64,000 nt of DNA from Escherichia coli. GTDB taxonomy: Bacteria; Pseudomonadota; Gammaproteobacteria; Enterobacterales; Enterobacteriaceae. Of this stretch, positions 26,512 through 41,119 are shown piece by piece. The stretch lies in assembly GCF_036507355.1 (NCBI RefSeq), contig NZ_AP027877.1. One strand, written 5' to 3'. The translations under genes and the position numbers were made by a program. Position 1 is the first letter of the stretch, and every line of letters starts with the position of its first letter. Under the pieces are notes generated by a model. The model was not told where the DNA came from. It did no database searches and was given only the letters and a program-made list of their open reading frames with translations.

Positions 26512-27324
26512 GTGCTGGATGTTCATCCCAGTGGTTTTTACGCCTGGCTTCAGCAGCCGCATTCACAACGCCATCAGGCAGACCTGAGGCTGACAGGGCA
26601 GATTAAACAGTTCTGGCTGGAATCGGGATGCGTCTATGGTTATCGCAAAATCCATCTGGATCTGCGGGACAGCGGGCAACAGTGCGGAGTGAACAGAGTC
26701 TGGCGACTGATGAAACGTGTCGGGATAAAGGCTCAGGTCGGATACCGGAGCCCGCGGGCACGTAAAGGCGAGGCCAGTATCGTGTCGCCCAACAGGCTCC
26801 AGCGACAGTTCAATCCGGATGCTCCGGATAAGCGTTGGGTAACGGACATAACCTACATCAGGACCCACGAAGGCTGGCTGTATCTTGCCGTGGTTGTTGA
26901 TCTGTTCTCACGCAAAATTATCGGCTGGTCCATGCAATCCCGGATGACAAAGGACATTGTCCTGAACGCACTGCTGATGGCTGTATGGCGCCGTAATCCC
27001 CAAAAACAGGTGCTGGTTCATTCGGATCAGGGCAGTCAGTACACAAGCCATGAGTGGCAGTCGTTCCTGAAATCACACGGCCTGGAGGGCAGCATGAGCC
27101 GTCGCGGTAACTGCCATGATAATGCGGTTGCAGAAAGCTTTTTCCAGTTGTTGAAACGCGAACGGATAAAGAAAAAGATCTACGGAACGCGGGAAGAAGC
27201 CCGCAGCGATATTTTTGATTACATCGAAATGTTTTATAACAGTAAGCGTCGGCATGGTTCCAGCGATCAGATGTCACCGACAGAATATGAAAACCAGTAT
27301 TATCAACGGCTCGGAAGTGTCTAG
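26512..27324 (+). CDS. IS3-family transposase OrfB (DDE/RNase-H-fold integrase core); probably made as an OrfAB fusion starting upstream
   Basis: DDE-type motifs (WVTDITYI..., HSDQGSQYTS, NCHDNAVAESFF). Confidence 0.8.
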   Translation: MLDVHPSGFYAWLQQPHSQRHQADLRLTGQIKQFWLESGCVYGYRKIHLDLRDSGQQCGVNRVWRLMKRVGIKAQVGYRSPRARKGEASIVSPNRLQRQFNPDAPDKRWVTDITYIRTHEGWLYLAVVVDLFSRKIIGWSMQSRMTKDIVLNALLMAVWRRNPQKQVLVHSDQGSQYTSHEWQSFLKSHGLEGSMSRRGNCHDNAVAESFFQLLKRERIKKKIYGTREEARSDIFDYIEMFYNSKRRHGSSDQMSPTEYENQYYQRLGSV

Positions 27325-27342
27325 ATTACCCGTGGCGATTCA

Positions 27343-27555
27343 GTCATCAGTAATTACGCTGTCATCCAGTTTCGCATAACAGATACTGTCATCACCGGCT
27401 TCAATATAGCTGGAAAAATTCTCACTGATGAAGCGGTAGAAAAGGGCACCGAGTACATACTGTTTAAAATCCCATCCATCTACGGAGCCTCTGACATCAT
27501 TGGCAATGGCCCAGATTTGGCGGTGTAGCTCTGCACGCTGCTGAAGGCTTGTCAT
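27343..27555 (-). pseudogene. hsdM: Type I restriction-modification methyltransferase HsdM (type IC, EcoR124I-like), N-terminal 71 codons only, truncated by the IS3-family element
   Basis: MTSLQQRAELHRQIWAIANDVRGSVDGWDFKQYVLGALFYRFISENFSSYIEAGDDSICYAKLDDSVITDD is near-identical to the recalled EcoR124I HsdM N-terminus; the ORF's stop is the terminal TGA/TCA of the IS inverted repeat. Confidence 0.75.
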
Positions 27556-27758
27556 TTTGTATCCTGTTGTATGATTCTTAAGTACTGTTATTGGCCCGAT
27601 TTTATCGTAATTTCATATTGATGACAGGCTTTGTATGTCATACGTTGCACTGAGAGTTCGTTTGCCCGGTTGTGTAGGCAGCGCTCTTTCAGCCAGGTCA
27701 GTAGAAACGTTGCGCTGACGATAAATACTGAAGCCCCAATACCATCGGGGCTGAACGT

Positions 27759-29636
27759 TCAGTCGGTGAGAATTTCTTCATCCGTATCCATTGTGGATGG
27801 TGATGAATCTATTTTTGTTGTAAGAAATACCCGATTCAGTAGTCTTTGCTTCAGGGCGTTTCTTCGCTCATTGTAGAACTCCGGGAAGCGACTGAACTCA
27901 ATATTTTCATCTGAAACTAACAGCATTGATGGCGAATAGTTGTTTGATGGCTGAGATAGCCATTGTTTCAGGGAAGTATCCTGTTTACTTATATTCTGAG
28001 AGTGATTCAGTAAATGAAGATTAGGTATGGTGTCCCAGTGCTCCGGATTTTCATAAAAGCTGAGGTTCTCTGGTGTATTCGCAACATAATCTAATTTTTC
28101 AAGATATTTCTTTGAAAAATGATTTCTTGGGTGAAGGTGATCAATATGAAACACCTCGGTCGGATTCATTTCAGGGAACAGAAGATGCAATAGTGCGCGG
28201 CAACGACCTTCGCCATATCTGATATTGAGAAGGCTTTCGATGTATTCGTCGTCAAATCTGAGGTCTTTATTCGAGCCTTTATATCTGTCAATAATCTTCT
28301 CAAGAGGAAAGTGAATATCTGAAAGACTATTTTTCATTACATCTCTGATACTCGTGAGTAGCGCATCTGCCTGGCTTCCAAAGATCCCTTTCAGAAGTAC
28401 CATGTAAAACCACTGGCTAATTACTGAGCGTTCATTGTGGTTTTTATTCAGGAGATTAATCGTTGTATATAATGGATGTCCACTGGTTTGCTTTTTGTAA
28501 AGCCAGTAGACCACAGGAATGACTGCATTTTTAGATATCAAAGACTGTGGATTGATGCCGAATCGCCTGATAAGAATAAAGGTCTCCTTGATACAGGATT
28601 TTATTTCAGACCATTGTTGTTGTATCTTACCGACCTCCTCTGAAGTGAAGTTTTTTACTTTGAACCGGACGTCAGAGTCAATAAGCATCAGGCTGGTTTT
28701 TAAGAACCAGTCTCTTTCAATATAAAAACCCATTTCATTATTCTGATAAATGTTTTTTGTCAGTTCATCCAGTTCTTTTCTGAAATCACCCTGCCAGTGC
28801 GCTACCGCTATTGACATCAGTAAGTCTGAAAACTCAAGTTTTGTCCCCCCGCTGTTCGTGCGGATGAAAACATCCAGCACATGATCAATGTCCTGACTGC
28901 TCTCATTGAAGTAGTGGATAAGATTCTCAGTTCTTATCTTGGTATAAAGTTTAAGCAGAGTTTTTCTGGAAAATTCACTGGAAATGAGATCTCTTTTTTC
29001 AAGTTCTGGTACGACAACGTTAAATAAAATATCATCAGGCGAATCATGTTGCTCGTATTTGAATATTTCGTGCAGGCAGAACCAGTGATGTTTGTTATCG
29101 GCAAGTGAATCAGTATATTGCTTCTCGGTCAGGAACCTGAAGTTATACTTCATCATGAGCTCATCGTCTGACTTAAGTGGCGCGGTTAAATCGACGTAAA
29201 GCTTTCTGGGTGGCAGGATGCGATCATCCTGTGCCGAAGGCCACCACATCCGGGGCTGTTTATACGCATACGTTCCACACAATCCAATATATAATGATGT
29301 GAGACGCTGCTGACCATCAATCACGGCCTTGAAATCATGAAACCCAGCATTTGTTGCTACGCAGGGGTTTTCTTCATTAAATCGCTGACAGTATTCTTTC
29401 AGGAACTCATAGAATTTGTAATCATTTTTAATACTGGCACTACGGATATCCCACATCATGAAAGAGTTTATCGGGTAGTCTCGCATGATGGAATCAAACA
29501 GCAAACATATCTGACTGCTGCTCCAGACGAACTTCCTCTGAATTGCAGGCAGAAGATAGTGGCGTAAATTAATTGAATCTATCGCTTGTTTTATCGTTAT
29601 TGCTTTTTCATACTGGCCAGCCATCATAAACCTCAT
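27759..29636 (-). CDS. GmrSD-family DUF262 (ParB-like, DGQQR motif) / DUF1524 (His-Me finger) protein; putative type IV modification-dependent restriction endonuclease
   Basis: N-terminal IKQAIDSI...YLLPAIQRKFVWS and IDGQQRLTSL motifs (DUF262); C-terminal FHIDHLHPRNH (DUF1524-like HNH); 625 aa; AT-rich. Confidence 0.75.
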   Translation of the reverse strand: MRFMMAGQYEKAITIKQAIDSINLRHYLLPAIQRKFVWSSSQICLLFDSIMRDYPINSFMMWDIRSASIKNDYKFYEFLKEYCQRFNEENPCVATNAGFHDFKAVIDGQQRLTSLYIGLCGTYAYKQPRMWWPSAQDDRILPPRKLYVDLTAPLKSDDELMMKYNFRFLTEKQYTDSLADNKHHWFCLHEIFKYEQHDSPDDILFNVVVPELEKRDLISSEFSRKTLLKLYTKIRTENLIHYFNESSQDIDHVLDVFIRTNSGGTKLEFSDLLMSIAVAHWQGDFRKELDELTKNIYQNNEMGFYIERDWFLKTSLMLIDSDVRFKVKNFTSEEVGKIQQQWSEIKSCIKETFILIRRFGINPQSLISKNAVIPVVYWLYKKQTSGHPLYTTINLLNKNHNERSVISQWFYMVLLKGIFGSQADALLTSIRDVMKNSLSDIHFPLEKIIDRYKGSNKDLRFDDEYIESLLNIRYGEGRCRALLHLLFPEMNPTEVFHIDHLHPRNHFSKKYLEKLDYVANTPENLSFYENPEHWDTIPNLHLLNHSQNISKQDTSLKQWLSQPSNNYSPSMLLVSDENIEFSRFPEFYNERRNALKQRLLNRVFLTTKIDSSPSTMDTDEEILTD

Positions 29637-29697
29637 ATGTTATATTAGCTGGCCTATTTTAATTTATTGCGTGTCGGTAGTACAGTCTTTGCACAAA

Positions 29698-30027
29698 CTA
29701 ATTTATGCAATGGAAAAGCTGACGGCTCGGTTTGTGTTTTTCATTCGGGTAGACTCGCATTGCGGATGCACAAAGTGATGAAACCTGTCTTGCTATATTT
29801 TTACCGAAGTTAACAAGTAGGCCGTGCTTTATTTTTTCACCCTCTGCCCTGATGCTGATGACAAAGCTGAACTGATATACGATTACCTCAATGAGGTCAT
29901 TGCCAAATGTTATGATGGCGGCGTTGTTTATTTCATATTCATAATCCCTCAGGTCAGTGTTAAGTCTTGCTGTTGCATTTACAAGTGCGTATTCTTTATC
30001 GATAATCATAACTTTCTCACTTATCAT
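29698..30027 (-). CDS. Hypothetical protein (109 aa) immediately upstream of the GmrSD-like gene
   Basis: ATG-initiated ORF on the same strand, 61 bp upstream of the DUF262 gene; no family recognised. Confidence 0.4.
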   Translation of the reverse strand: MISEKVMIIDKEYALVNATARLNTDLRDYEYEINNAAIITFGNDLIEVIVYQFSFVISIRAEGEKIKHGLLVNFGKNIARQVSSLCASAMRVYPNEKHKPSRQLFHCIN

Positions 30028-30067
30028 GTTAATGTGATTTAATCATCACTAATAATATGTTGTGATT

Positions 30068-30781
30068 TTAATTACGATTATTCGTCTGTTTACTCCCGTA
30101 ATGCATTATCTGATGAATAATGTTCATGTGGGGTAAGGCTTCCATAAAGTCAGACTGTTCAATCAGCGAAATGAGTGTGTTATCGATCTCAAACGTTGTA
30201 TCCGGTAATACCTCAACCAGCCTGATTCGGGACAGGGAAATAACGAACACGCCCGATGACGTACATCCGGCAAGAAACCACTCCGCATGGCTGCAAAGCA
30301 GACGATAGGGATGAACGGTATGGCTGACGTTTTCGTCGGTTCTGATACGCACCTTGGTCTGGTTAAGTATGGCGAGCGTTAGTCTGCTGAAATCACCGAA
30401 CAGCGTGGGTTTCTGGCGCGGCTCCGGGAGCATAATCCGGTAGGGTGAAGGGTGCTCCCCGTCAAGCAGAAGGCTCAGCAGTTTGGCATCCATCGCGGGT
30501 AACAGACGGTCAAGATGCAGCAGTCTCGCCAGTATCTTCATATCTCGTTCCGTGCGGCGACGAAAGTAATGTGAGGCAAGCTGATACACGCCGTTGCTCT
30601 GTTCAATATCAAGGTAGGTCAGACGGACGTTGAAATCCCGCCGCAGCGTTCGCGTTGTCACTCCAAATTCTTCTGCCAGCGTCCCGATATGCAGCTTTTC
30701 ACCCTGAAACAAACGGCTCAGGATGATGGAAAGGCGGGTTGCCAGTCTGTCATGTTCGTTTTCTTGTGTTATCAGCGTCAT
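30068..30781 (-). CDS. HTH plus WYL-like domain transcriptional regulator (BrxR/CapW-like candidate)
   Basis: N-terminal HTH_11-like segment (RLSIILSRLFQGEKLHIGTLAEEFGVTTRTLRRDF) followed by a ligand-binding-like domain; sits upstream of a defence gene. Confidence 0.6.
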   Translation of the reverse strand: MTLITQENEHDRLATRLSIILSRLFQGEKLHIGTLAEEFGVTTRTLRRDFNVRLTYLDIEQSNGVYQLASHYFRRRTERDMKILARLLHLDRLLPAMDAKLLSLLLDGEHPSPYRIMLPEPRQKPTLFGDFSRLTLAILNQTKVRIRTDENVSHTVHPYRLLCSHAEWFLAGCTSSGVFVISLSRIRLVEVLPDTTFEIDNTLISLIEQSDFMEALPHMNIIHQIMHYGSKQTNNRN

Positions 30782-30883
30782 ACATCATTTCCGAATTTAG
30801 CCGGGAAATGATGCCAGCAGTAGCGGACAGGATTTGTCCACCCTCTGAAGTTTTTTAAAGTCTGAATACCTTAAATGTAAGTG

Positions 30884-31633
30884 CTAAACGTCAGTATTCT
30901 CAGGTGAATAAAGATGCTTCTGGCGCATGTAGGCAATAAAAATGCAGGATGGTAGCGTCACCCGGTATGCGGGACCGGCTAAATCAATCAGCAGCCAGAG
31001 AGAACTGAGCACCCAGCCCACAGGACCGGCAAAAGCGCCCATGGTACGCGTCAGCATGGCATTTCCTGCAACGGTCAGCCCTCTGCCTAACAGGGCTTTC
31101 GCCACACCATTTGTGACAACAAGTGCCATCTGATAGGCCGCAAACCCGGATGTTTTTATCCCCGCCTGGATTGCCATGGTCAGCAACTCCGGCGTGGGGT
31201 TGCTGTAGCCTGTCTGCAATTCTTCCGCCACGGTCTTTAACTGATCGGGCGTCATCTTCTCAAGGCTTTTCTCCAGGATCTTCATCAGCAGATTCATTTC
31301 AATGGTTTCAACACTGGATTTGTTGTTGTAGTTCACCTTCATTTTATCGCAGGCATCGGTGAGAATTTCCCGGTACGGCACCCCTTTACCCCAGCGGAGC
31401 AGCGTGGCAAAGCTGTTCGCCCCAAACGTCTGAACCTCGGCGGCAATGGCATCCCAGTAGCGCGGGTGGTTGGGCTTGTGTTTTTTATACTGAGGATCAT
31501 AGGTCAGCGTTTCCGTGATGCGTGCCAGTCCGTCTTTCGGATCGCAGATAAGCACAGAAACCAGTAAATCCAGATCGTCACGATGGCAGTGGCGCAGAAA
31601 CTCAAGGTCGGGGTCGTGTCGGTAGGTAGCCAT
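30884..31633 (-). CDS. YaaW-like (UPF0174/DUF3944) protein
   Basis: Resembles recalled YaaW (LEFLRHC..DLDLLV, GPVGWVLSSLWLLIDLAGPAYRVT); 249 aa. Confidence 0.5.
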   Translation of the reverse strand: MATYRHDPDLEFLRHCHRDDLDLLVSVLICDPKDGLARITETLTYDPQYKKHKPNHPRYWDAIAAEVQTFGANSFATLLRWGKGVPYREILTDACDKMKVNYNNKSSVETIEMNLLMKILEKSLEKMTPDQLKTVAEELQTGYSNPTPELLTMAIQAGIKTSGFAAYQMALVVTNGVAKALLGRGLTVAGNAMLTRTMGAFAGPVGWVLSSLWLLIDLAGPAYRVTLPSCIFIAYMRQKHLYSPENTDV

Positions 31634-31774
31634 ATTTCACCTCATTGCAGATATTGGACCTGACAGTTTAAGGAAGCCACCGGACAGGGCTTGTCCGCCT
31701 GAAAAACAAAAAAGTAAAAAAAACCTGCCGAAAGCAGGTTTCTGTTCACCGGATGGAGGTATAACGCGTCGGGA

Positions 31775-32161
31775 TTACTTTCCGCGCCATTCCTTTTCCA
31801 CTTTATCCGCAAAAGCATCGCACTGCCGGGCATATTCCGGGTTATAGAGCAGCTCCGACTGCGAAAGCTGCATGGCGGTCATGCTGCCGTTACGGGCATT
31901 TGATTCGAGCCAGGTTCTGCCATAGGTTTTGTTCATCACCTGAAGTACCCGGTTGAATACCGGTCCGTTGAAGCGGGCATTGAGATTAACGCCTTTTACC
32001 TGAAGGCCGCTGTCACTGGTCTGGGTCAGGCGGGTGGAGTACATCGCGCAGAAGGTCGAGTTGGTTATCATCTGAGCGTCAGCCTGCTCGTCGGCGAACG
32101 CGCTGTGGCTGAAGGCGGAAAGCAGAATTGTGGCGGTTAACAGTTTTAAAATTTTCATCAT
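31775..32161 (-). CDS. Exported hypothetical protein (signal peptide)
   Basis: N-terminal MMKILKLLTATILLSAFSHSAFA signal peptide; 128 aa. Confidence 0.5.
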   Translation of the reverse strand: MMKILKLLTATILLSAFSHSAFADEQADAQMITNSTFCAMYSTRLTQTSDSGLQVKGVNLNARFNGPVFNRVLQVMNKTYGRTWLESNARNGSMTAMQLSQSELLYNPEYARQCDAFADKVEKEWRGK

Positions 32162-32235
32162 GTTCCCTTATGGATTGAAAAGCGGAGACAGCCTGCCATA
32201 CAGGGTGGTCAGGAGATGTCCGGCAGAGAAAAAAG

Positions 32236-32475
32236 TCAGGGTTTCAGCGAGGGAGCCAGTCGCCAGCGGTGAGGGCCAGCAGATTCGAGCACAAAGGCCA
32301 GTTGAGCGAGGTCCCGTCTTGCGGTCCGGGGAGATACGTCAAACTGCCGGATGATGTAGCGAACAGATATTGTCTGACCGTAAAACAGCACCATGGTCAG
32401 CCGGATGAGCCGTTCTCCCTGTCCGGTAGCGTGTTGCCTGCGACGATTAACGTTCATCGTTGCCATACGCGCCAT
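32236..32475 (-). pseudogene. Short HTH-only ORF resembling the N-terminal domain of a DeoR/WYL-type regulator (possible remnant)
   Basis: GERLIRLTMVLFYGQTISVRYIIRQFDVSPRTARRDLAQL is HTH_11-like; only 79 aa and overlaps the 3' end of the neighbouring gene. Confidence 0.35.
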
Positions 32476-32918
32476 CGGTCCCCTTTCTGAAAAGAATCGA
32501 GGTGTCTGGCAAGCCAGATATCAGGGCATGAATTGCCGGTAACGCAGCGGGCAGTAAACCGGTGGCAGTTAAAGTCGAGCAGGCTGTAGGGATAGCGCTG
32601 ACCCACTGCCGCCTTTGCCCGTTCAGCGGCCTGCGCACAACCCTGAGGCGTCAAATCCATACAATCGGTATACACCGAGATAGCGGAGTTCCAGCCATCG
32701 AGCCGGTCAAGAAACCCTTTAGCCTTACTTTTGATAACGGTTCCATCGCCATCAAGATGAACAATATCGCCGTTACCCACATAGATACCGCTGTGTGCGG
32801 CAAGGCCAAAAAGCAGTTCGCACTGCACGATACCACCGTAAGCCGGTTCATCGACGCAGGAGAGAATGCAGTTATCGATAAATGAATCCACGAAGTTCAG
32901 CAGCAGAAGCCGGTACAT
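32454..32918 (-). CDS. LRAT/NlpC-P60-superfamily protein (start at MYRLLLL)
   Basis: His-containing HSGIYVGNGDIVH followed by a C-terminal NCHRF motif resembling the LRAT catalytic-Cys NCEHF box. Confidence 0.5.
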   Translation of the reverse strand: MYRLLLLNFVDSFIDNCILSCVDEPAYGGIVQCELLFGLAAHSGIYVGNGDIVHLDGDGTVIKSKAKGFLDRLDGWNSAISVYTDCMDLTPQGCAQAAERAKAAVGQRYPYSLLDFNCHRFTARCVTGNSCPDIWLARHLDSFQKGDRWRVWQR

Positions 32919-32976
32919 AACATTCAGTTCCTTACTACGGGGGAGAGGGGGGATGCGGGGGAAACGTAGTGAACAC

Positions 32977-33405
32977 TCAGCTTTCCCACAACGTACGGAC
33001 CGTGAAAACCCCCATATCGTGGTAAGCCATAAAGTTACTTTCCCATAGCGACCAGAACTCACGGGCGTCGACATGAGAGATATCGCCACAACGGGAAAGC
33101 CACGTGTATTGTTGCGTCCAGCTCACATCGACATCTTTTTCAAGCTCAGGCCATGGATGCCCTGCATAATGAAAATCGGTGACGTAATCGAGCTGCCAGT
33201 CTTCTCCGGCAGGGATGAGGCGTATTTCGACCGGATGCCAGCCGCCCTTTTCCGGTGAGTATTCAGGGTCACGGAAGTTAATGGTTAATCCGGTGATGGG
33301 GTGACGATGAGGCGGTTTTTGCGCGAGGATATCCAGAAGCAGTTGGGTGAACGACCGGGAGAGAGGCAGCACATAGCCGCCCTGCAATATTACGGGTGAT
33401 GACAT
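32977..33405 (-). CDS. Hypothetical protein (142 aa)
   Basis: ATG ORF, same strand and closely spaced with neighbours; no family recognised. Confidence 0.45.
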   Translation of the reverse strand: MSSPVILQGGYVLPLSRSFTQLLLDILAQKPPHRHPITGLTINFRDPEYSPEKGGWHPVEIRLIPAGEDWQLDYVTDFHYAGHPWPELEKDVDVSWTQQYTWLSRCGDISHVDAREFWSLWESNFMAYHDMGVFTVRTLWES

Positions 33406-33451
33406 AGTGAATTTCCTGATTTTTGGTTAACAGAACACAGAAAAAGCGGGG

Positions 33452-33883
33452 TTAGTCCTGGCTGAGCGTAGCAAGCTGCGTCATACGATGCTGCCAGTCG
33501 GCATAGCAGCGGTGCATAAAGAGTCTGCTGCTGTCCGCTTCGATAAGGCAGATATCCGGACTTCTGAGTACGGCGGCAAGAAACCCGGCGTTGTTGGTGC
33601 TGCCCTGACCAAATAGTGGTCGAAACACACGCGACGGAAAGCTGTCCTGCTGCTGTTCAAGAATGGCGTGAATCGCATCAAGCGTTATCCATTCACGGGA
33701 GAACAGGCCTCCTTCGCCATTGGCGGTTAAGCGCAGGGCGAGGCTTCCGGTTTCATCCTCCTTACCCAGCTCATACGTCAGCAGTCCCTTACTGTGTGGA
33801 CTGATTTTCTCGGCTTCACCCCTGTAGAACACGGTATAGCTTTCGGTGACGGCGGCTTCGGTAGCGACTTTTTTCTTACTCAT
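33452..33883 (-). CDS. Hypothetical protein (143 aa)
   Basis: ORF whose start overlaps the stop of the upstream gene by 8 nt. Confidence 0.45.
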   Translation of the reverse strand: MSKKKVATEAAVTESYTVFYRGEAEKISPHSKGLLTYELGKEDETGSLALRLTANGEGGLFSREWITLDAIHAILEQQQDSFPSRVFRPLFGQGSTNNAGFLAAVLRSPDICLIEADSSRLFMHRCYADWQHRMTQLATLSQD

Positions 33884-34247
33884 GGTTCAGCGCCTCAATC
33901 AGGTTCTGGAGTTGAGTGATAACGGTCGTGTCCGGGAACACCAGATAGATACCCTGTCCGTTATCGCAGACGATACCGAGCAGGAGATACCAGCCATCAT
34001 CAAGTGCGGTGACGTATTCCGGGTTAGCCAGTGCCACTGCCAGCAGCGGGTCTTCGGGGAGGGTGTCATCGTGGTTGAGATGCCAGAGCAGGGTTCTTGT
34101 TTCTTTCCAGAAAGCAGTAAACAGGTCGATATCATCTACGGGGCCAAGAATTTCATTGCTGAGGGCTTCCAGCGCGGAGGCTGGCAGGTTGAGAAGGGAA
34201 ATACTGGTAGGGGTTGTGAGTTTGTACATAGTTATCTCCATCATCAA
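33876..34247 (-). CDS. Hypothetical protein (123 aa)
   Basis: First gene of a four-gene minus-strand cluster; no family recognised. Confidence 0.4.
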   Translation of the reverse strand: MMMEITMYKLTTPTSISLLNLPASALEALSNEILGPVDDIDLFTAFWKETRTLLWHLNHDDTLPEDPLLAVALANPEYVTALDDGWYLLLGIVCDNGQGIYLVFPDTTVITQLQNLIEALNHE

Positions 34248-34457
34248 TCGAATATCATGGAAATAATATGTGTCCGTTTTAAGGGCTATTACAGGCTTGG
34301 TGTGTTGGATTTGTTTTTCTTATTACGAACAAATAGCGACTGGCTCAGGCCGGGATTGTTTAGAGACAGATTCAGCATAGATTCGTAAAAATAAAAACTA
34401 TTAGCGCGAGATCCTCTGTTTATGCCGTGACAGTTAACTGATAGGAGGCTTGTTGGT

Positions 34458-35163
34458 TGGATTTGCCCCTATATTTCCAGACACCTGTTATCACTTAACC
34501 CATTACTGGCCCGCTGCCGCAGATATTCCCGTGGCGAGCGATAACCCAGCGCACTATGCGGATGCCATTCGTTATAATGCTCGAACGCCTCTGCAAGGTT
34601 CTTTGCTGCCGTTAACCCGTCTGGTTTGGGCATGATACTTATGTAGTCACGCTTTATCGTTTTCACGAAGCTCTCTGCTATTCCGTTACTCTCCGGACTC
34701 CGCACTGCCGTGTTCTTCGGTTCAAGTCCCAACATCCTGGCGAACTGACGTGTTTCATTCGCCCGGTAGCATGAACCATTATCCGTCAGCCACTCCACTG
34801 GAGACGCCGGAAGCTCGCTGCCAAAGCGGCGTTCCACTGCTCCCAGCATGACGTCCTGTACTGTTTCACTGTCGAAGCCACCCGTTGTGACCCCCCAGTG
34901 CAGTGCCTCACGGTCACAGCAGTCCAACGCGAACGTGACCCGCAGTTTTTCTCCGTTATCACAGCGGAACTCAAACCCGTCAGAGCACCATCGCTGATTA
35001 CTTTCTTTCACAGCCACTCTGCCGGTATGTGCCCGTTTCGATGGCGGTACAGCGGGTTTTCGCTCAAGCAACAGCGCATTCTGGCGCATGATCCGGTAAA
35101 CACGTTTGGCATTGATCGCAGGCATACCATCAAGTTCTGTTTGTCTGCGAAGCAGCGCCCATA
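34458..35163 (-). mobile_element. IS2 fragment (right-hand about 0.7 kb: 3' part of insD plus the right inverted repeat); the left half is missing
   Basis: tggatttgcccctatatttccagacacctgttatcacttaa at 34458-34498 matches the recalled IS2 right IR; the adjacent ORF matches InsD from [10 protein letters not shown] to ...NRCLEI. Confidence 0.85.
34469..35125 (-). pseudogene. insD: IS2 transposase InsD, C-terminal about 218 codons only
   Basis: Translation matches the recalled InsD C-terminal two-thirds; homology extends upstream to about 35163 ([12 protein letters not shown]) and then stops. Confidence 0.85.
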
Positions 35164-35636
35164 ACGCAGCCCTTGCCTTACTGGTGTTTCTGGCCCTGAC
35201 CGGATTACGCCTTGGTGAAACCCGTTATCTTCTGCTTGAGGATATCGACTGGTCCCGTCAGACCATCACTTTGCGAGAAACTAAAAACGGTAAGCTTCGC
35301 TGTGTGCCAGTGGGTGATAAGGCCTTTGTTCTTCTGACTGAGCAGCGCCAGCACTTGGGCGATAAAGGCTGGGTTTTCCCCGGCTATAACACAACTAATC
35401 CGGTTGCAGAACCACGCCGTCTGCAAAAGCGTATATGTGAGAAAGCCGGTATTTCACCATTCACTATTCATGAGATGCGACACACTTTCGCCACGAAACT
35501 TATCGAGAGTGGGGCTGACATCCATACCATCAAAGATTTACTGGGCCACAGCACCATAAAGGTTACCGAGAGGTACCTACATGGCAGCCCGGTGCGCTAC
35601 CACGAGGCCATTAACAAGGCGATGGATACGTTCTAG
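35160..35636 (+). pseudogene. Tyrosine recombinase (phage-type integrase), C-terminal catalytic domain only, N-terminus replaced by the IS2 fragment
   Basis: [17 protein letters not shown] (box I), HEMRHTFAT and LLGHSTIKVTERYLH (box II with catalytic Tyr) motifs; abuts the IS2 fragment. Confidence 0.7.
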
Positions 35637-35717
35637 GTATAAGCATAACTATCCACAGGCAGGTTAGTTCCTTTTTCCCTGCACGCGATTTATCTGTTTT
35701 TAATTGAGGATTAGATA

Positions 35718-37643
35718 ATGAATAACATAGTGACACCCGCCCCCTTAACGACAATGGCGCGTTTTGCCTGTTCGAAACTGAATGGATTTCTGGCTCGTCG
35801 GGCTTTGCATCAGGCAAATGCGAAGAAAATCCTTAAAAAGGCAATTGCAATCAGCATTGCGGTCGATGAGATTTCGGCAAAAGGGGGGCGTGATGGTCTG
35901 CCTGATGGGTTTGTTAACTCACCGCATGGGCTTTTTTATGATGATGGCAAAAAAGTGTTTCAGCTCAGTTCTACTGCTATTGTTCCCGTCAGCAGGCATT
36001 ATTCAGCGTGTAAGAAGCGCAATATGGGTGTCGAACTCATGACCATTAATCATGCGGGTCAGTATGTCTGCGCTGAAATTTCACTGAGCAACGTTACGCT
36101 AAACCCCGATAGTGTGATTGGCTCCCTGACAGCGCAAGGTTTCGGTATCCCTATGACGGTAAAGACGAAAGAGCTGTTGGCGCAGTTCTTACAGACATGT
36201 ATGAAGCAAGCGCTGGCTCTCCCTACCTACCTTGTCGCTGATTCAATGGGATTTGTACCCGGCAAGAAAGCGTTCTTACATGGCAATATGCCTTTAGCAC
36301 AGAACATCCCTGGGTTTGATTACCTTATTTCCGTTCAGCGTACACCCGCAGGGATCGTTGAGTCCGGCACGCTGGATGCGTGGAAGGCTCTGGTGAAAAA
36401 GAATGTCCATGGATGGCCACAGATTTTTGCATTGTGTTCTGCCTTTGCGTCCATGCTGGTTGCATTGTGTAAAATGGATGTGGCGATGTTTCACTTCTAT
36501 GGTGGGTCAACGACTGGAAAAACGATCCTTCTCCAGCTTGCGATGTCAGTTCATGGTCATGGCGGGGAGCCGGGAAGTGGAAAGCTTGTCAATGTTCTTC
36601 GCTGGAATACCACGGTGAATGCGCTAGAGAAGCGACTGAGTCAGTTCTCAGGCCTGCTGGCATGTGTGGATGAGTTGGGGGCTTATAAACAAAAGGACTT
36701 CGCTTCGCTCCTGTACAACATTACCGCCGGTCAGGGTAAAAGCAGAATGGACAAGAATCTGGATATACGTGAGCTTTATACATGGGAAATGTTAATTCTC
36801 TCCGCAGGTGAAATGTCCATTTCTGAGAAGCTAGCGACGGAAAAAGAACATCTTCAGGGTGGACAGGAACATCGCGCCATTAGCCTCAATGTTTTGCCTG
36901 AAGATGCCCGTAAAGACGGCGAATCATCAGAAAGGGTACGCTGCCGCGCTGATAGTCTGAAAAATGGCCTGAGTGAAGTTTATGGTACGGCGGGTAAGGA
37001 ATTTATTGCTAATTTGCTGGCACTGGATAATGACGATGATGAACCGCAGTCCTGGGATGAAATGTGCCTGTCTATTCAGGGGGCAGTAGAAGAACAACGT
37101 GACAGTCTTGTCGGTGAGCTGCAGGAAGAAGGTTATGCACTTAGTGACATTCAGCTGCGTGCATTAAAACGATTTTCCCTATGTTTGTGTGCCGGAATCC
37201 TGGCAGCATCATGGAATATCCTTCCGTTCAGTGAAGATATTATTAAGGGTGCGGTAATGAGCGCGGCTCGTCGCTGGCTGGATGATAAACCAAACCAGTA
37301 TAGCCCACTAAAGCAGGTGCTTACGGCTATCCAGCACGATCTTCTCACAACCAGAGCGTCCCATTTAATGCCGTTGCTTGATGAGGATGCGCATACCCCA
37401 TACAACCACTGGGGGTACACGGATAAGAACGATAACATGATGATTTTCGCTCCTGTTTTTGAAGGCTGGTGTGCCAAAAAAGGCATTAAACCTGCTGATG
37501 TGGCGAAAGCATTGGCAAAAAAAAATCACCTCAAACCAGAAAGTCAGGGCCACTACAAAAAACGTCCTCAGAAGGGAGTTCAGCAACCTTTTTATCTGGT
37601 TATGAATACATTTCTTGGCTGTAACATTGGCGCTGACTTTTAA
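35718..37643 (+). CDS. DUF927-like P-loop protein (putative primase/helicase-associated replication protein of an integrative element)
   Basis: Central P-loop FYGGSTTGKTILLQ and Walker-B-like LLACVDELG; 641 aa; sits next to integrase genes. Confidence 0.6.
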   Translation: MNNIVTPAPLTTMARFACSKLNGFLARRALHQANAKKILKKAIAISIAVDEISAKGGRDGLPDGFVNSPHGLFYDDGKKVFQLSSTAIVPVSRHYSACKKRNMGVELMTINHAGQYVCAEISLSNVTLNPDSVIGSLTAQGFGIPMTVKTKELLAQFLQTCMKQALALPTYLVADSMGFVPGKKAFLHGNMPLAQNIPGFDYLISVQRTPAGIVESGTLDAWKALVKKNVHGWPQIFALCSAFASMLVALCKMDVAMFHFYGGSTTGKTILLQLAMSVHGHGGEPGSGKLVNVLRWNTTVNALEKRLSQFSGLLACVDELGAYKQKDFASLLYNITAGQGKSRMDKNLDIRELYTWEMLILSAGEMSISEKLATEKEHLQGGQEHRAISLNVLPEDARKDGESSERVRCRADSLKNGLSEVYGTAGKEFIANLLALDNDDDEPQSWDEMCLSIQGAVEEQRDSLVGELQEEGYALSDIQLRALKRFSLCLCAGILAASWNILPFSEDIIKGAVMSAARRWLDDKPNQYSPLKQVLTAIQHDLLTTRASHLMPLLDEDAHTPYNHWGYTDKNDNMMIFAPVFEGWCAKKGIKPADVAKALAKKNHLKPESQGHYKKRPQKGVQQPFYLVMNTFLGCNIGADF

Positions 37644-37818
37644 GAGGGAGCAGGAATAGAGATTAAATAATATAAGGTTAATTAAGATTTTCCGTGCCGT
37701 AATTTAAATTGTAGGATCCGGAAATATAATCTGAATGCTCAGAGGGCAGGTTGTGCACAAAATGGGCATTTAATTTTTTAATTATTCAACATATATATCA
37801 ACTAAAGGTAATTTTAAA

Positions 37819-38238
37819 ATGTATCATACAACTCCTGATGAATGTCCTGAGTTTCCACAGGCGATTAGTTCCGAAAATGTGGGGAAAGTAAAATTTACAC
37901 GTTACAGGCTCTTAATGACACAGGCTCAATGCAATTTTTATGGTATTCAACGAGAGATTTTTGATGGCGAATTTCCTGCTCTTAGAGCAATTGTTAAAGG
38001 TGATTTTCAAATCGAATTTTTTGTGAAATATAAGTGTAGAGGGCTGGATTACTATGGTTCTCTTGGTGATTGGCCTCATATGACAATTAGTGATGCAAAA
38101 GAAATCGCAGAGGGAGTTTTCAATAACTGCGATGACTCCCACCGTAATAACTGGGAGGGTGAAAATGATAGCGATAGTATCGAAGAAGACATGATGAGCT
38201 ATTTTGAAAATGGTATTCCATTCGGCAATAATTCATAG
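37819..38238 (+). CDS. Hypothetical protein (139 aa)
   Basis: AT-rich ATG ORF followed by a strong terminator hairpin. Confidence 0.4.
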   Translation: MYHTTPDECPEFPQAISSENVGKVKFTRYRLLMTQAQCNFYGIQREIFDGEFPALRAIVKGDFQIEFFVKYKCRGLDYYGSLGDWPHMTISDAKEIAEGVFNNCDDSHRNNWEGENDSDSIEEDMMSYFENGIPFGNNS

Positions 38239-38336
38239 GTTTATACTGGATTTTCACGTCAGTAACGAAATCGAAATTCGCACATGAAAACATCTATATC
38301 TATGAGGTAGTTACTTATCGATAAACGACTGTGAAA

Positions 38337-38364
38337 GCAGAGGGGCGGCCCCTCTGCTTTTTTT
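38337..38364. terminator. Bidirectional rho-independent terminator
   Basis: gcagagggg-cggc-cccctctgc stem-loop followed by a T7 run, between a plus-strand ORF and the convergent integrase gene. Confidence 0.55.
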
Positions 38365-38365
38365 G

Positions 38366-39553
38366 CTACAACGTATCGGGTAACTGAGCGCGGATACGTT
38401 CCGCCAGTAACTGACTGGTGTTCTGTAAGCGCTGAGGATGAAGATGTGCATAACGCTGTGAAGACTGACTGCTACGGTGCCCCAGTTGAGCCTGAACGTC
38501 ATATAGCGTACCGCCGTAGGACACGATGAGGGCGGCAACCGAATGGCGGCAGGTATGGATACACACTTCCTTGTCGAAAATTCCCGCCCGACGCACGATA
38601 CGCTGAAAGGCTTTAACCGGGTTACTCAGCGGCATTCCCTGTTTTTTACCAATAAACAACCACGGATTTCCCCGCTGCGTTGGCAGCGTTCTGATTACGT
38701 CCATCGCCAGTGAGTTAAGGTGAACAATCCGTCCATAGCCATTCTTGGTTTCAGGGAGCCACAGGGTGCGTTTAACCGGGTCAACATGCTCCCACTTTGC
38801 CAGACGCAGCTCATCGCGGCGAAGGCCGGTCAATAACAGCAGTTTGACATAGCGGGCAGCTACAGGGCTGGTATCGTTATCGGCGGAGAGAAAAATACGA
38901 CGAATTTCGTCCTCGGTAAAATAACGCTGTCGGGCGTTGTTCTCCCTGAGTAGCTGTACCACCCTTGCCGGATGAACAGAGGTCATGCTTTGCCTTCCGG
39001 CCCATGTAAAGACGGCTTTAATGAGTACGATGACACGGTTACAGGTAGCCGCTGACAGGGAAGTACTTAACGTCTGCTGAAGGCGCAGAATGCTCGCTGG
39101 TGTGATATCGCTCAGCAGCCTCTGACCAATGGCGGGACGGATATGATCGCGGTAGCGCTGAACATCCTTTCCCCAACTGCGTTTAGCGGATTTTGCCCAT
39201 GGCAGATAATGCTGATTAAAGAGTTCATCGAACGTCAGCTCCATTCTCTTGTTTTCACGCTCCTGCTTAGGGTCAGTGCCGGTGGCAAGGGAACGTTTGT
39301 GTTCTATGGCAATCTGACGGGCAAGATTGACGTCCACTTCAGGCCAGTGACCAATGGCGATGGCGCGTTTTCGTCCATGATAGAGGTAGCGGAGCAAAAA
39401 CTTTTTACGACCTTCTTTTCTGCTGACCAGACACTTGAGGCCGGAAATCTCGGTGTCGCTGTATTCGGCATCGGTGCTGCGTGCATCTGATGTGTTAGGG
39501 GGCAGTGATTTAATGAGCTGATTAGTAAAACGGAAGCGTTTGGGAGTGGACAT
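38366..39553 (-). CDS. int: P4-type tyrosine integrase (DUF4102 arm-binding N-domain plus catalytic domain), apparently intact
   Basis: N-terminal ...LKCLVSRKEGRKKFLLRYLYHGRKRAIAIGHWPEVDVNLARQ (DUF4102-like); C-terminal HTCRHSVA...LGHRSSQSSQRYAH catalytic motifs; strong SD (aggagg) before the ATG. Confidence 0.85.
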   Translation of the reverse strand: MSTPKRFRFTNQLIKSLPPNTSDARSTDAEYSDTEISGLKCLVSRKEGRKKFLLRYLYHGRKRAIAIGHWPEVDVNLARQIAIEHKRSLATGTDPKQERENKRMELTFDELFNQHYLPWAKSAKRSWGKDVQRYRDHIRPAIGQRLLSDITPASILRLQQTLSTSLSAATCNRVIVLIKAVFTWAGRQSMTSVHPARVVQLLRENNARQRYFTEDEIRRIFLSADNDTSPVAARYVKLLLLTGLRRDELRLAKWEHVDPVKRTLWLPETKNGYGRIVHLNSLAMDVIRTLPTQRGNPWLFIGKKQGMPLSNPVKAFQRIVRRAGIFDKEVCIHTCRHSVAALIVSYGGTLYDVQAQLGHRSSQSSQRYAHLHPQRLQNTSQLLAERIRAQLPDTL

Positions 39554-40066
39554 ATAACCTCCTGTGACTGGTGTAAAGAACGTCAGGGTTGACCCATCCC
39601 CGGCACGGCGTTGTTAATGGCTAAGTTGATTTTCTGGCATGGCGAAGGGAATGCTGGTGCCACATGGTATGAATTAAGACGGGAAATGCAGAAAGAGCAG
39701 GCTTTACGGTCTGATTCTGGTCTTAAGGGAAAAGATTGCCGTTGGGGAAGAGTTCACAGAAATAATATGTGTTTCAGTCTAGAACAATTACATGCCATGA
39801 GGATCAAGAGAGTTGCCCGTATATGGCAGGTATCAAAGTTGGTTATGGATGTTGCCAAAACATAGTGGGGATGGATGTTGAAGTGCTAACTTGATGTTTT
39901 TAATGGGAAAGTGTAAATTGCGTGATGCGTTGCACTCATGTAGATAACACCATTGAAAGTATCAAATTGTTTGAAAAAAAATCATCTTTGATCAACCTTA
40001 AGATTGTTTCTAGATGGTAAAATCTTCATATGGGAAAGAGCTCACTGGTAAGGAAGACAAATCCTG

Positions 40067-41119
40067 ATGGGGATCATCGTACGAATTCTTAAAGCTAACC
40101 ATGGCGATTGCATTTTGGTGAGCCATGAAAGCGGTTCAGGCACTCTCAACTTGCTCATTGATGGGGGACCTGCGACGACATTCAGGTATGGCATTAGGCA
40201 GCGCTATTCTGGAGCATTGAGTAACGCTCTCGATGATCTGAAAGGAAAGGGGCAAAACATTGATCTGGCTATCCTGACCCACATTGATGATGATCACATA
40301 AATGGTTTTATCAAGGCATTCGAAAGTCCAAACTATCTGCGTCAGCTGGTTAAATCGATCTGGTTCAATTCTTCGAGGTTAATCACACATCATTTTAATG
40401 TGCCTGAAATTTGTGAAAATAATATTTTCTTGCAGGAAGTTTCCCCTGAAACTAGCGTTAAACAGGGGCAAGAACTTGAGGCATTACTTGATGAAATCGG
40501 ATGTGTGCGAGCACCGCTCATTATGGCAGGGCAAATCTACAAAGTAGGCCCGATTACTTTAACAGCACTTTCACCTGAACGAAGACAACTCGAACAGCTT
40601 TTGCATAAGTGGCCAACGGAAGTAAGTTCAGCTGACACTTCTTCATATGAGAATGATTATCACCGTTCATTGGACGAAATTTGGGCAGATGATAGATTTG
40701 AATCTGACTCATCTATTTATAATGGAAGCTCAATTGCATTTTTACTGGAAACAGATGACAAAAAAATGCTTTTTTTAGGAGACGCCAATGACCAAGTTGT
40801 TACAAAAAATTTAAGAGCATTGGGCTATAGCGAAACAAACAAGTTGAAGCTGGATCTGGTTAAAGTTTCGCATCATGGTAGTCAATACAACACAAGCAAC
40901 GAATTTCTTTCAATACTAGATTCTCCATGCTTTGTTATTTCAACCAATGGTTCGAAGCATGGTCTTCCTAATAAAAGGACTATTGCAAGGATCTTAAAGG
41001 AAACAGATGGTGATATTTATTTTAATTACAGCAATGTAATTACTCCGCTGCTTTTAGCGCATGAAGCTGAGAGCTATTCTTCTCGTCTAAAAGTGCTAGG
41101 TGATGAGATTAAATTCTAA
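40067..41119 (+). CDS. Metallo-beta-lactamase-fold hydrolase (candidate nuclease/effector); gene 1 of the candidate defence operon
   Basis: MBL motifs HGDC, THIDDDH, SHHGS; 350 aa; AT-rich. Confidence 0.7.
   Translation: MGIIVRILKANHGDCILVSHESGSGTLNLLIDGGPATTFRYGIRQRYSGALSNALDDLKGKGQNIDLAILTHIDDDHINGFIKAFESPNYLRQLVKSIWFNSSRLITHHFNVPEICENNIFLQEVSPETSVKQGQELEALLDEIGCVRAPLIMAGQIYKVGPITLTALSPERRQLEQLLHKWPTEVSSADTSSYENDYHRSLDEIWADDRFESDSSIYNGSSIAFLLETDDKKMLFLGDANDQVVTKNLRALGYSETNKLKLDLVKVSHHGSQYNTSNEFLSILDSPCFVISTNGSKHGLPNKRTIARILKETDGDIYFNYSNVITPLLLAHEAESYSSRLKVLGDEIKF

Follow-up and report, generated by a model that had tools for sequence, protein, structure and literature searches.

JukA-family protein in a mobile island of E. 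coli

The 249-aa protein encoded at positions 30884..31633 (minus strand) of a 64,000-nucleotide stretch of Escherichia coli DNA, referred to here as the window, belongs by its profile and alignment matches to the JukA family; it is accessory and horizontally transferred. JukA, formerly known as YaaW, is the cytoplasmic sensor of Juk (jumbo phage killer) in Pseudomonas aeruginosa PA14, a system that recognizes nucleus-forming jumbo phages early in infection (Li et al. 2022, bioRxiv 10.1101/2022.09.17.508391). We hold with moderate confidence that this JukA works without JukB but with a helix-turn-helix (HTH)-WYL regulator as an operator-controlled defense module within a tRNA-Phe island, and that a neighboring 128-aa exported protein forms a separate, co-regulated unit. 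A first-pass annotation of the same DNA had described the two proteins as a possible mobile pair of unknown function; the “unknown function” part is now outdated since YaaW has become JukA, a characterized anti-phage sensor. A 2026 review ranks JukA among the most abundant immune proteins of bacteria and calls its action without JukB unclear.

The gene for the 128-aa protein lies at 31775..32161, also on the minus strand, so that it comes first on the coding strand and jukA second, with 141 nt between the two. The annotation had placed the exported protein after the 249-aa protein, an order that holds only in plus-strand coordinates; the signal peptide that it reported is present.

Two Pfam families matched the 249-aa protein, namely, DUF3944 at residues 4-38 (2e-9; 37.5 bits for a cutoff of 24) and Ubiq_cyt_C_chap (PF03981, Cbp3-like) at residues 58-228 (2e-8; 34.7 bits for a cutoff of 21.5). 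A DUF3944 domain followed by a Cbp3-like domain within about 240 to 250 aa is the architecture of YaaW, and the PA14 JukA protein shares this architecture and the family assignment. The island protein matches the PADLOC JukA models over its full length; model PDLC04113 aligned residues 3-241 to model positions 4-239 of 245 (6e-72; 240 bits), and PDLC04111 also matched (8e-70). As a control, K-12 YaaW matched the same models with 193 bits, i.e., below the score of the 249-aa protein. The resemblance to K-12 YaaW that was initially noticed is borne out by BLASTP, in which the two proteins align over their full length with 27% identity (E value of 8e-24; residues 3-238 versus 4-230). The protein nonetheless scored 89.8 bits with the NCBIfam yaaW equivalog model, far under its cutoff of 395 bits, and is therefore a paralog within the YaaW family rather than a yaaW ortholog. 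It is 99% identical to WP_064670466.1, an entry among the JukA homologs in Supplementary Table 3 of Li et al. The jukA gene evolves with a dN/dS of 0.045-0.12, and its product is better conserved than those of its neighbors in the block.

PA14 JukA (PA14_03360) is inactivated by mutating NS66-67, R73/K74, Y79, or E104 (Li et al. supplement, bioRxiv 10.1101/2022.09.17.508391). By motif spacing, rather than by direct alignment with the PA14 protein, NS66-67, R73, Y79, and E104 would correspond approximately to N73/S74, R80, Y87, and E112 of the 249-aa protein. R80, Y87, and E112 are invariant in our JukA alignment (A5), while N73/S74 vary slightly, with S or T among element copies and D instead of N in K-12 YaaW.

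None of the island ORFs scanned gave a PADLOC match to JukB, the effector of the canonical two-gene JukAB system. Two proteins of about 270 aa encoded after JukA at other loci (L028 and L029) were considered as JukB candidates and rejected. The island thus differs from PA14 Juk in having no JukB and an HTH-WYL regulator as the partner of JukA. Some JukAs are known to protect without JukB, i.e., those from Escherichia and Janthinobacterium, in which jukA is accompanied by an Xre regulator, and a Vibrio JukA (Li et al.). In the JukB-less systems tested in that study, JukA alone arrested infection and the phage DNA was not degraded. The JukA protein of the island is likewise paired with a transcription factor and no effector, although this factor is of the HTH-WYL type and not of the Xre type found in the Escherichia system (whose JukA is WP_121372120.1) and the Janthinobacterium system.

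The Ubiq_cyt_C_chap match and the EcoGene-style annotation of K-12 YaaW as a “putative enzyme-specific chaperone” could also be taken to mean that the 249-aa protein has no role in phage defense and instead helps to assemble a membrane or respiratory protein as a Cbp3-like chaperone. We consider this highly improbable, given that no candidate client gene is found nearby, that the gene is accessory and resides in a defense island with a defense-type WYL regulator as its partner, and that experiments on the family demonstrate anti-phage sensing.

The 128-aa exported protein is not a YaaI paralog

The K-12 yaaW gene indeed neighbors a gene for a small exported protein, as the first-pass annotation stated. 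This gene, yaaI, encodes 134 aa with a DUF2541 domain and an N-terminal signal-like sequence; it shares the strand of yaaW and ends 25 nt before it. The arrangement in the island is similar, since here, too, a small (~130 aa) signal-peptide protein is encoded immediately upstream of a JukA-family gene in the same orientation. However, yaaI-yaaW is a core locus with a 25-nt gap and no WYL gene, whereas the island locus is accessory and its 141-nt gap contains a terminator and an operator-like site. The proposal that the island genes form a paralogous pair held for the 249-aa protein, which is a YaaW paralog, and failed for the 128-aa protein. No alignment with YaaI was obtained by BLASTP at an E value of up to 100, the 128-aa protein has no Pfam match to DUF2541 (PF10807), and hhalign returned a probability of 0.45% with the signal peptides alone aligned. 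In addition, an exhaustive profile search of 1.84 billion representative proteins with the 128-aa family returned no DUF2541 protein. The predicted folds also differ, as the AF2 model of the 128-aa protein is all-alpha, a predicted four-helix bundle (pLDDT of 87), while the predicted YaaI fold is all-beta (pLDDT of 77). Homology to YaaI is therefore ruled out by BLASTP, Pfam, hhalign, profile search, and predicted fold class alike, and in view of this lack of sequence or profile similarity and of the different folds, the 128-aa gene and jukA are not a duplicated yaaI-yaaW pair.

The 128-aa protein is nevertheless a real exported protein. It carries a typical Sec signal peptide (MMKILKLLTATILLSAFSHSAFA, followed by DEQ in the mature protein) that is kept in its homologs, two Cys residues are invariant in the alignment of these homologs (A1), and a dN/dS of 0.10-0.22 indicates purifying selection on its gene. 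The family is small, comprising only 15 representative clusters in the exhaustive profile search, and the protein had no match in Pfam, NCBIfam, PADLOC, or PHROG.

An HTH-WYL regulator is the conserved partner of JukA

The gene directly downstream of jukA (30068..30781, minus strand) encodes a 237-aa protein matching Pfam HTH_DeoR (2e-6; 27.7 bits) and, marginally, Pfam WYL (1.8e-4; 21.9 bits for a cutoff of 21.8). The PADLOC WYL model PDLC01457 covers residues 12-230 (4e-15). The gene has a dN/dS of 0.06-0.10. WYL genes, along with parts of restriction-modification systems, are the most frequent defense-associated neighbors of jukA according to the literature. Rouxiella and Yersinia likewise have a WYL gene immediately 3′ of jukA; their WYL protein is 41-42% identical and their JukA 63-64% identical to the island proteins, and the remaining block is absent there. 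On this evidence of gene neighborhood, the evolutionarily stable partner of JukA is the downstream HTH-WYL regulator and not the exported protein. An ORF of 109 aa located 3′ of the WYL gene (29698..30027, minus strand) is conserved with 47-100% identity in element-type loci that reach past the WYL gene and is absent from Rouxiella and Yersinia; its product has no signal peptide and matched no family in Pfam, NCBIfam, PADLOC, or PHROG.

On the other side of the 128-aa gene, a 79-aa stand-alone HTH protein (32236..32475, minus strand; HTH_DeoR, 6e-6) is a truncated paralog of the DNA-binding domain of the WYL regulator. It matches the N-terminal 40 positions of the PADLOC WYL and PHROG models that are also matched by the 237-aa regulator and cross-matches the start of WYL genes in tblastn with 36-43% identity.

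Two known WYL repressors, CapW and BrxR, bind as dimers to palindromes or inverted repeats at defense promoters; BrxR has two sites within one island, and CapW is released by single-stranded DNA. Like them, the island regulator combines HTH and WYL domains and is encoded beside a defense gene. Operator-like palindromes lie where such a regulator would be expected to bind, before jukA, its putative target, and before the regulator gene itself. The regulator is, however, shorter than CapW and BrxR, and a search of the PDB gave no sequence relative at an E value of 0.01 or lower. The analogy is thus a loose one because of this short length, the marginal Pfam WYL match, and the missing PDB relative.

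Three operator-like sites suggest a regulon

The palindrome GGACA-N5-TGTCC occurs exactly twice in the 64-kb window, compared to 0.04 occurrences expected. One copy is located 48 nt upstream of the jukA start codon (31682..31696) and the other 43 nt upstream of the WYL-regulator gene (30825..30839). A single further site with one mismatch or fewer exists in the window, the variant GGACA-N5-TGACC, 45 nt upstream of the start of the 128-aa gene (32207..32221), and the chance of finding such a variant at this offset is about 3e-4. Every element lineage, and also Rouxiella, keeps the jukA site at 48-51 nt; its half-sites are invariant and its spacer varies. The WYL site is kept at 43-46 nt in all element lineages. 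The site upstream of the 128-aa gene is kept at 45-50 nt in all 13 loci examined and has at most one mismatch in 11 of them; the exceptions are L005, with two mismatches, and L009, with the symmetric variant TGACA-N5-TGTCA. Taken together, the three positions are kept across nearly every element-type lineage, with half-sites one or two mismatches from the consensus and variable spacers. The start of the upstream operon and the regions preceding the other block genes yielded no further operator-like site. Our scan called no sigma-70 promoter beside the three sites, and -10 and -35 candidates picked by hand were weak.

Palindromes at similar spacing before the 128-aa gene, jukA, and the WYL gene suggest that the three genes form one regulon. 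In principle, the 79-aa HTH protein could be what recognizes the palindrome, or the palindrome could function as a hairpin in RNA. Rouxiella retains the jukA site without having the 79-aa HTH gene, however, which makes the WYL protein the probable binder.

The 128-aa gene and jukA are probably separate transcription units

An intrinsic-terminator-like hairpin is located between the 128-aa gene and jukA (31709..31743, minus strand). The terminator scan describes it as an 11-bp stem with a 3-nt loop and a U-run, and folding of the 81-nt region gives it in the minimum free energy structure (-17.8 kcal/mol) as well as in the centroid structure (-14.8 kcal/mol). The stem and T-run are kept in four lineages. 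In Edwardsiella, an extra lipoprotein gene is inserted between the 128-aa gene and jukA, and the equivalent hairpin is found 3′ of the lipoprotein gene. On the basis of the conserved terminator and the Edwardsiella insertion, we rejected a simple two-gene operon. The two genes are probably separate units that are co-regulated, the latter reading being drawn from the third operator-like site, upstream of the 128-aa gene. The idea of a conserved pair thus survives in part. The two genes are adjacent in all element copies sampled, yet Rouxiella and Yersinia lack the 128-aa gene; what stands of the weaker claim is the sharing of operator-like sites and the apparent co-regulation of the exported-protein gene with jukA.

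A stronger link can be envisioned, in which the 128-aa protein as an envelope-side partner and JukA as the cytoplasmic sensor function together as a genuine pair, an analog of YaaI-YaaW that arose by nonhomologous replacement. The position of the gene, upstream and co-oriented as in yaaI-yaaW, the adjacency in every element copy, and the common operator family at equal spacing all fit such a pair. Mutually unrelated small exported proteins also occur at other Enterobacterales JukA loci, i.e., the extra lipoprotein in Edwardsiella and, in Rouxiella and Yersinia, differing signal-peptide proteins whose genes immediately follow the WYL gene. Operon Jo20 of Li et al. also appears to start with a gene for a signal-peptide protein, according to our own reading of the printed DNA. 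Nonetheless, we regard a functional pair as unlikely. A conserved terminator divides the two genes, an extra gene may intervene between them, Rouxiella and Yersinia hold JukA and the WYL regulator without the 128-aa family, and six JukA loci outside Enterobacterales have no exported neighbor. Moreover, the two proteins would reside in different compartments, signal-peptide proteins are common enough that adjacency in a small sample examined post hoc could be due to chance, and neither Jo20 nor the DUF2541;jukA operon of Li et al. was active against PhiKZ, the latter giving no protection in P. aeruginosa. An even more doubtful extension is that JukA sensors in Enterobacterales are recurrently co-expressed with mutually unrelated small exported proteins that serve as interchangeable envelope-side partners, with core-genome YaaI, the 128-aa helical bundle, the Edwardsiella lipoprotein, and the signal-peptide proteins of Rouxiella and Yersinia as examples. 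These proteins would, speculatively, act from the periplasm or from within a membrane-derived early-infection vesicle, with JukA acting from the cytoplasmic face, and the link in the island would be the three-promoter regulon under the WYL protein.

The module belongs to the backbone of a horizontally mobile island

As the annotation proposed, the gene pair is located within an island, whose limits, set by comparison with E. coli genomes, are 27343..46975, at tRNA-Phe (pheV; 46900-46975). Two Arm-DNA-bind_3 integrases, one of them disrupted by an IS fragment, flank a DUF927 protein. The defense cargo comprises HEC-05 (27759-29636) and a Lamassu-type system (40067-46063), and the only ORF of at least 800 aa in the island encodes an LmuB-like ATPase. 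Horizontal mobility, also part of the initial proposal, is supported by the distribution of the gene. A jukA-type gene of this kind is carried by 133 of 5,426 E. coli genomes, compared to 5,424 of 5,426 for the core yaaW-yaaI locus; strains G3/10 and 1916D18 are among the carriers, and the 249-aa protein is 98-100% identical in four other genera (Buttiauxella, Pseudocitrobacter, Enterobacter, and Silvania). A phage or satellite origin of the block was rejected, as 50,697 phage records gave no match beyond a 247-bp piece. Only two JukA loci, both distant, were found in viral contigs.

The JukA-WYL module is part of the conserved element backbone and adjoins the variable cargo. Defense genes are not usually placed in this way, so that the module might also serve the biology of the element itself. 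The backbone genes upstream (32454..34247, minus strand) encode 123-aa and 143-aa ORFs, a DUF2787 protein (Pfam, 1e-32), and an LRAT/NlpC-P60-like protein (Pfam LRAT, 1e-10), and their order is identical in all element copies.

The element can be likened, by domain content only, to gammaproteobacterial pipolins. Both are bimodular tRNA islands with two tyrosine recombinases, a core of DUF2787, WYL, and orphan proteins, and variable defense cargo. A WYL protein, DUF2787, and “orphan proteins” are listed as core genes of related bimodular islands by Mateo-Caceres et al. (2024, PMC11551731), who mention “piPolB-less, pipolin-like islands” in passing. In contrast to pipolins, the present island lacks piPolB, with DUF927 as the only large gene between the integrases, both of its integrases are of the Arm-DNA-bind_3 type, and its target is tRNA-Phe instead of tRNA-Leu. 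No diverged copies of the block were found in E. coli, e.g., in canonical pipolins, by sensitive blastn.

The JukA-WYL module may alternatively be a core function of the mobile element, such as sensing of phage or DNA damage for the control of element genes or transfer, instead of host defense. Its location in the backbone outside the variable cargo, the WYL-DUF2787-orphan core of related bimodular islands (PMC11551731), and the higher conservation of JukA than of its neighbors are compatible with that role. We consider it very unlikely, however, as Rouxiella and Yersinia carry the module in an island of another type, close relatives of this JukA occur in unrelated contexts across phyla, which is a cargo-like behavior, and experiments on the JukA family indicate defense.

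Proposed model of an inducible JukB-less defense module

In the operator-controlled defense module that we favor, a dimer of the WYL regulator would bind GGACA-N5-TGTCC upstream of jukA and of its own gene and GGACA-N5-TGACC upstream of the 128-aa gene. On the pattern of CapW and BrxR, it would keep the three promoters repressed, and a nucleic-acid signal arising from infection or DNA damage would release it. PA14 jukAB is reported to be constitutively expressed, whereas the operator-like sites of the island suggest inducible control. JukA, as a putative sensor of phage infection, would then act alone, gather at the infection site, and arrest the infection, as in the JukB-less JukAs from Escherichia, Janthinobacterium, and Vibrio. 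The 128-aa protein would be a periplasmic helical bundle expressed from its own transcription unit, which is closed by the conserved terminator, and would probably be co-regulated with jukA without being its obligatory partner.

The locus is thus a compact, E. coli-borne JukB-less JukA from an already-known defense family, in an architecture (jukA plus WYL) absent from the set of 17 operons that Li et al. assayed. With regard to annotation, “YaaW family / DUF3944” proteins in islands are best read as JukA homologs, and the neighboring exported protein should not be labeled YaaI-like. The locus also bridges two bodies of literature without mutual citation on this matter, in that the “WYL protein plus orphan genes” in pipolin-like cores may include a JukA module. 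For the JukA family, the conserved WYL regulator and the three conserved operator-like sites provide a testable model for how JukB-less systems may be switched on.

The island-borne YaaW-like protein belongs to the JukA family

Both open reading frames (ORFs) reported by the first-pass annotation were recovered at the same coordinates and lie on the minus strand, so that the coding order is the 128-aa gene (31775..32161), a gap of 141 nt, and the 249-aa gene (30884..31633), here called jukA. The proposed resemblance of the 249-aa protein to K-12 YaaW extends over the entire sequence, as the two proteins align end to end (27% identity, E 8e-24) and share the Pfam architecture DUF3944 plus Ubiq_cyt_C_chap. 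A housekeeping role as a Cbp3-like chaperone seems highly improbable. The PADLOC JukA model PDLC04113 matches the whole 249-aa protein (6e-72, 240 bits), and since K-12 YaaW matches the same PADLOC JukA models (193 bits), YaaW and JukA constitute one family.

Li et al. (bioRxiv 10.1101/2022.09.17.508391) gave YaaW the new name JukA. In their "jumbo phage killer" system JukA serves as the sensor: it travels to where PhiKZ infects and recruits the effector JukB. According to a 2026 review, the early phage proteins sensed by JukA are located on the early-infection vesicle, in which JukB forms pores, and the mode of action of JukA without JukB is called unclear. Li et al. described many alternative partners for JukA homologs, the commonest defense-associated neighbors being WYL-domain genes and R-M components, and reported protection by JukA alone for Escherichia and Janthinobacterium (with Xre regulators) and Vibrio; the jukA-WYL architecture lies outside the 17 operons that they assayed. 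Their homolog table includes WP_064670466.1, which is identical to our 249-aa protein at 246 of 249 residues (99%) and is encoded by the copy of this island that E. coli 1916D18 carries at the same locus. The family assignment is therefore already in print, as are the JukA family, this very protein, and the wider association of JukA with WYL genes. In the literature consulted, we found no description of how the operators and the terminator are arranged, of a three-promoter regulon, or of the place of the module in a pipolin-like island backbone.

Island jukA is an accessory paralog of yaaW, in line with the horizontal mobility that had been suggested. Of 5426 complete E. coli genomes, 133 contain its region and 5424 the core yaaW-yaaI locus, and the protein scores far under the NCBIfam equivalog cutoff (89.8 versus 395 bits). 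It belongs to a widely transferred clade, with homologs that are 98 to 100% identical in Buttiauxella, Pseudocitrobacter, Enterobacter, and Silvania and still 53 to 62% identical in Clostridium, Azohydromonas, and Gilliamella; K-12 YaaW (27 to 32% identity) is the divergent branch. A JukA homolog with 40% identity and a proline-rich C-terminal tail was also found in a high-GC viral contig (L023:4971-5840), between a gene for a large protein that by eye resembles a primase and genes that resemble terminase subunits; JukA genes may thus also travel on prophages or satellites. In E. coli GPEC1189, a 1-bp deletion shifts the jukA frame near residue 212 (L002:20888-21633), so this copy, annotated by RefSeq as a shortened "YaaW family protein," is probably inactive. 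NCBIfam NF007593 (237 positions) is named "acidic protein MsyB" yet matches YaaW-family proteins, and RefSeq labels the yaaW locus of many E. coli genomes "msyB: acidic protein MsyB," whereas NC_000913 says YaaW (K-12 locus L001:1644-2357). True MsyB is another protein, of 124 aa, and the label looks like a propagated naming error.

The exported neighbor is a real gene unrelated to yaaI

Three features mark the 128-aa ORF as a genuine gene, namely a Sec-type signal peptide (…SAFA|DEQ) kept across homologs, two invariant cysteines, and a dN/dS of 0.10 to 0.22. The family is a tiny orphan: the count is 24 hits, or 15 representative clusters when 1.84 billion proteins are considered; all homologs with an organism name are from Enterobacterales, and no match was found in Pfam, NCBIfam, PADLOC, or PHROG. 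In K-12, the small exported yaaI does adjoin yaaW, as the first-pass annotation noted (same strand, 25 nt upstream); it encodes a 134-aa DUF2541 protein with a signal-like N-terminal sequence, and Li et al. listed putative operons of jukA with DUF2541. The parallel drawn with a paralogous yaaW/yaaI pair nevertheless fails on its second member. BLASTP gave no alignment between the 128-aa protein and YaaI at E<=100, hhalign of the two family alignments gave 0.45% probability with only the signal peptides aligning, and AlphaFold predicted an all-alpha bundle for the 128-aa protein (pLDDT 87) versus an all-beta fold for YaaI (pLDDT 77), which together rule out the relationship.

The WYL regulator is the stable partner of jukA

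The pairing of the 128-aa gene with jukA is conserved, but as part of a larger unit. A co-oriented block recurs in Citrobacter, Hafnia, Edwardsiella, and other lineages in which the 128-aa protein is only 48 to 85% identical. It comprises, in order, a 117- to 123-aa ORF, a ~143-aa ORF, a DUF2787 gene (missing in one lineage), an LRAT-like gene, a 79-aa helix-turn-helix (HTH) gene, the 128-aa gene, jukA, the HTH-WYL regulator gene, and a ~105-aa ORF. An integrase, a DUF927 gene, and a second integrase lie next to the block, with variable cargo after it. The first five genes (123-aa ORF, 143-aa ORF, DUF2787, LRAT/NlpC-P60-like, and 79-aa HTH; 32454-34247, minus strand, and equivalents in L003-L016) form a tight, partly overlapping operon, and these upstream genes match PHROG families of unknown function.

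Adjacency of the 128-aa gene and jukA thus recurs within the block, but the two are set apart by a strong, conserved terminator-like hairpin (11-bp stem plus U-run; −17.8 kcal/mol for the MFE fold and −14.8 kcal/mol for the centroid fold of the 81-nt region) and, in Edwardsiella, by an additional lipoprotein gene with the terminator after it. The Rouxiella and Yersinia JukA proteins, 63 to 64% identical and from the most distant JukA loci, are encoded without the 128-aa gene or the whole upstream block, in place of which EcsC-like and DUF932-like genes were recognized by eye. The WYL regulator gene (41 to 42% identity) directly follows jukA there, and because it is kept where the 128-aa gene is gone, it is the stable partner of jukA. 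At five further JukA loci from other phyla, neither a WYL gene nor an exported neighbor was found.

The EcsC-like protein (~200 aa) is encoded two genes upstream of jukA (L019:5437-6060 in Rouxiella and L020:5244-5849 in Yersinia), and the one from Rouxiella hits PADLOC candidate PDC-S29 (2e-56); EcsC-like proteins are among the putative JukA operon partners mentioned by Li et al. In two other metagenome or genome loci (L028:5001-7628 and L029:5001-7626), a full JukA is followed by a ~270-aa protein with a weak PDC-S50 match, a second protein with a JukA-like C-terminal half, and HigB, a layout that resembles the "jukA;jukA;NA" class tested by Li et al.

Three consecutive transcription units share a putative operator

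Only two exact copies of the palindrome GGACA-N5-TGTCC are present in the 64-kb window (0.04 expected), one 48 nt upstream of jukA (31682..31696) and the other 43 nt upstream of the WYL gene (30825..30839). Every element lineage keeps both positions; the spacers vary, but the half-sites hardly do, with a single mismatch in one L005 copy. Rouxiella retains one site, 51 nt upstream of jukA, and Yersinia has a site with one mismatch 61 nt upstream. A search tolerant of one mismatch yields a single additional site, GGACA-N5-TGACC (32207..32221), which precedes the 128-aa gene by 45 nt; the chance of a site at this offset is ~3e-4. This position is occupied in 13 of the 13 loci examined, with at most one mismatch in 11; the L005 lineage has two mismatches and the L009 lineage the symmetric variant TGACA-N5-TGTCA. 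The other block genes have no such site. One operator family with one spacing thus seems common to three consecutive transcription units.

Judging from gene content, the WYL protein is more likely to bind these sites than the 79-aa HTH protein, because Rouxiella keeps the site without the 79-aa HTH gene. The 79-aa protein, a truncated paralog of the HTH domain of the WYL regulator, might be a competitor at this site. A precedent for such putative binding comes from CapW and BrxR, WYL repressors that act as dimers on palindromes or inverted repeats in defense promoters; BrxR has two sites within a single island, and CapW is released by ssDNA. A sigma-70 promoter scan called none at the operator-like sites. 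In the alignment, a second short conserved motif, G[TC]CAGG, lies ~15 to 22 nt downstream of the sites before jukA and the 128-aa gene (31650-31665 and 32180-32195); it may belong to the promoter or extend the binding site.

The operator shared by the 128-aa gene and jukA, along with the recurrence of unrelated small exported proteins at Enterobacterales JukA loci, would fit a true envelope-side partner of JukA. We consider this role unlikely, given the intervening terminator, the lack of the 128-aa gene at other JukA loci, the different compartments of the two proteins, and the small, post hoc sample of exported neighbors.

jukA resides in a pipolin-like defense island

The island spans ~27,343 to 46,975 and ends at tRNA-Phe. 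A 625-aa GmrSD_N/DUF262 protein (27759-29636, minus strand) matches the PADLOC candidate defense family HEC-05 (GmrSD-like; 5e-231); this variable cargo directly follows the conserved block and is also present in the Pseudocitrobacter and Enterobacter copies. Between the integrase and tRNA-Phe lies a four-gene Lamassu-type system (ABC-three-component; 40067-46063, plus strand) encoding an MBL-fold LmuA-like protein (426 bits), a trypsin-CTD4 LmuA-like protein (474 bits), LmuC/MComp1 (169 bits), and a 1043-aa LmuB-like SMC ATPase (1037 bits). No match to JukB was found among the island ORFs.

Two Arm-DNA-bind_3 integrases flank the DUF927 protein, one being broken by an IS fragment: within 34469-35636, a 176-aa C-terminal integrase fragment (35106-35636, plus strand) abuts an IS3-family transposase fragment (34469-35125, minus strand), while the second integrase is intact in other genera (390 to 427 aa). 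By domain content, the island backbone resembles the conserved core reported for gammaproteobacterial pipolins (two recombinases, DUF2787, a WYL protein, and orphan genes, with variable defense cargo), but it lacks the defining piPolB gene. That the JukA-WYL module serves the mobile element itself strikes us as quite improbable.

The island occupies at least two chromosomal sites, since in GPEC1189 much of this composite island (76% of a 25-kb query, 99.7% identity) is inserted inside frvX, between frvR and frvB, versus tRNA-Phe (pheV) in the window and strain 1916D18. In the window, an IS3-family transposase (26512-27324) comes directly after glcA and is itself followed by the island (24119-27343 for this stretch), whereas 1916D18 carries the sslE-gsp-yghD region between glcA and the island, which points to a deletion associated with the IS in the strain of the window.

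A JukA sensor that may act alone

The reading we favor, with some reserve and from comparative sequence evidence, is that of a JukA sensor that lacks JukB and would be controlled by the WYL regulator. This JukA would act on its own, as do the Escherichia, Janthinobacterium, and Vibrio JukAs that have been assayed, and the 128-aa periplasmic protein would be a co-regulated, yet separable, neighbor.
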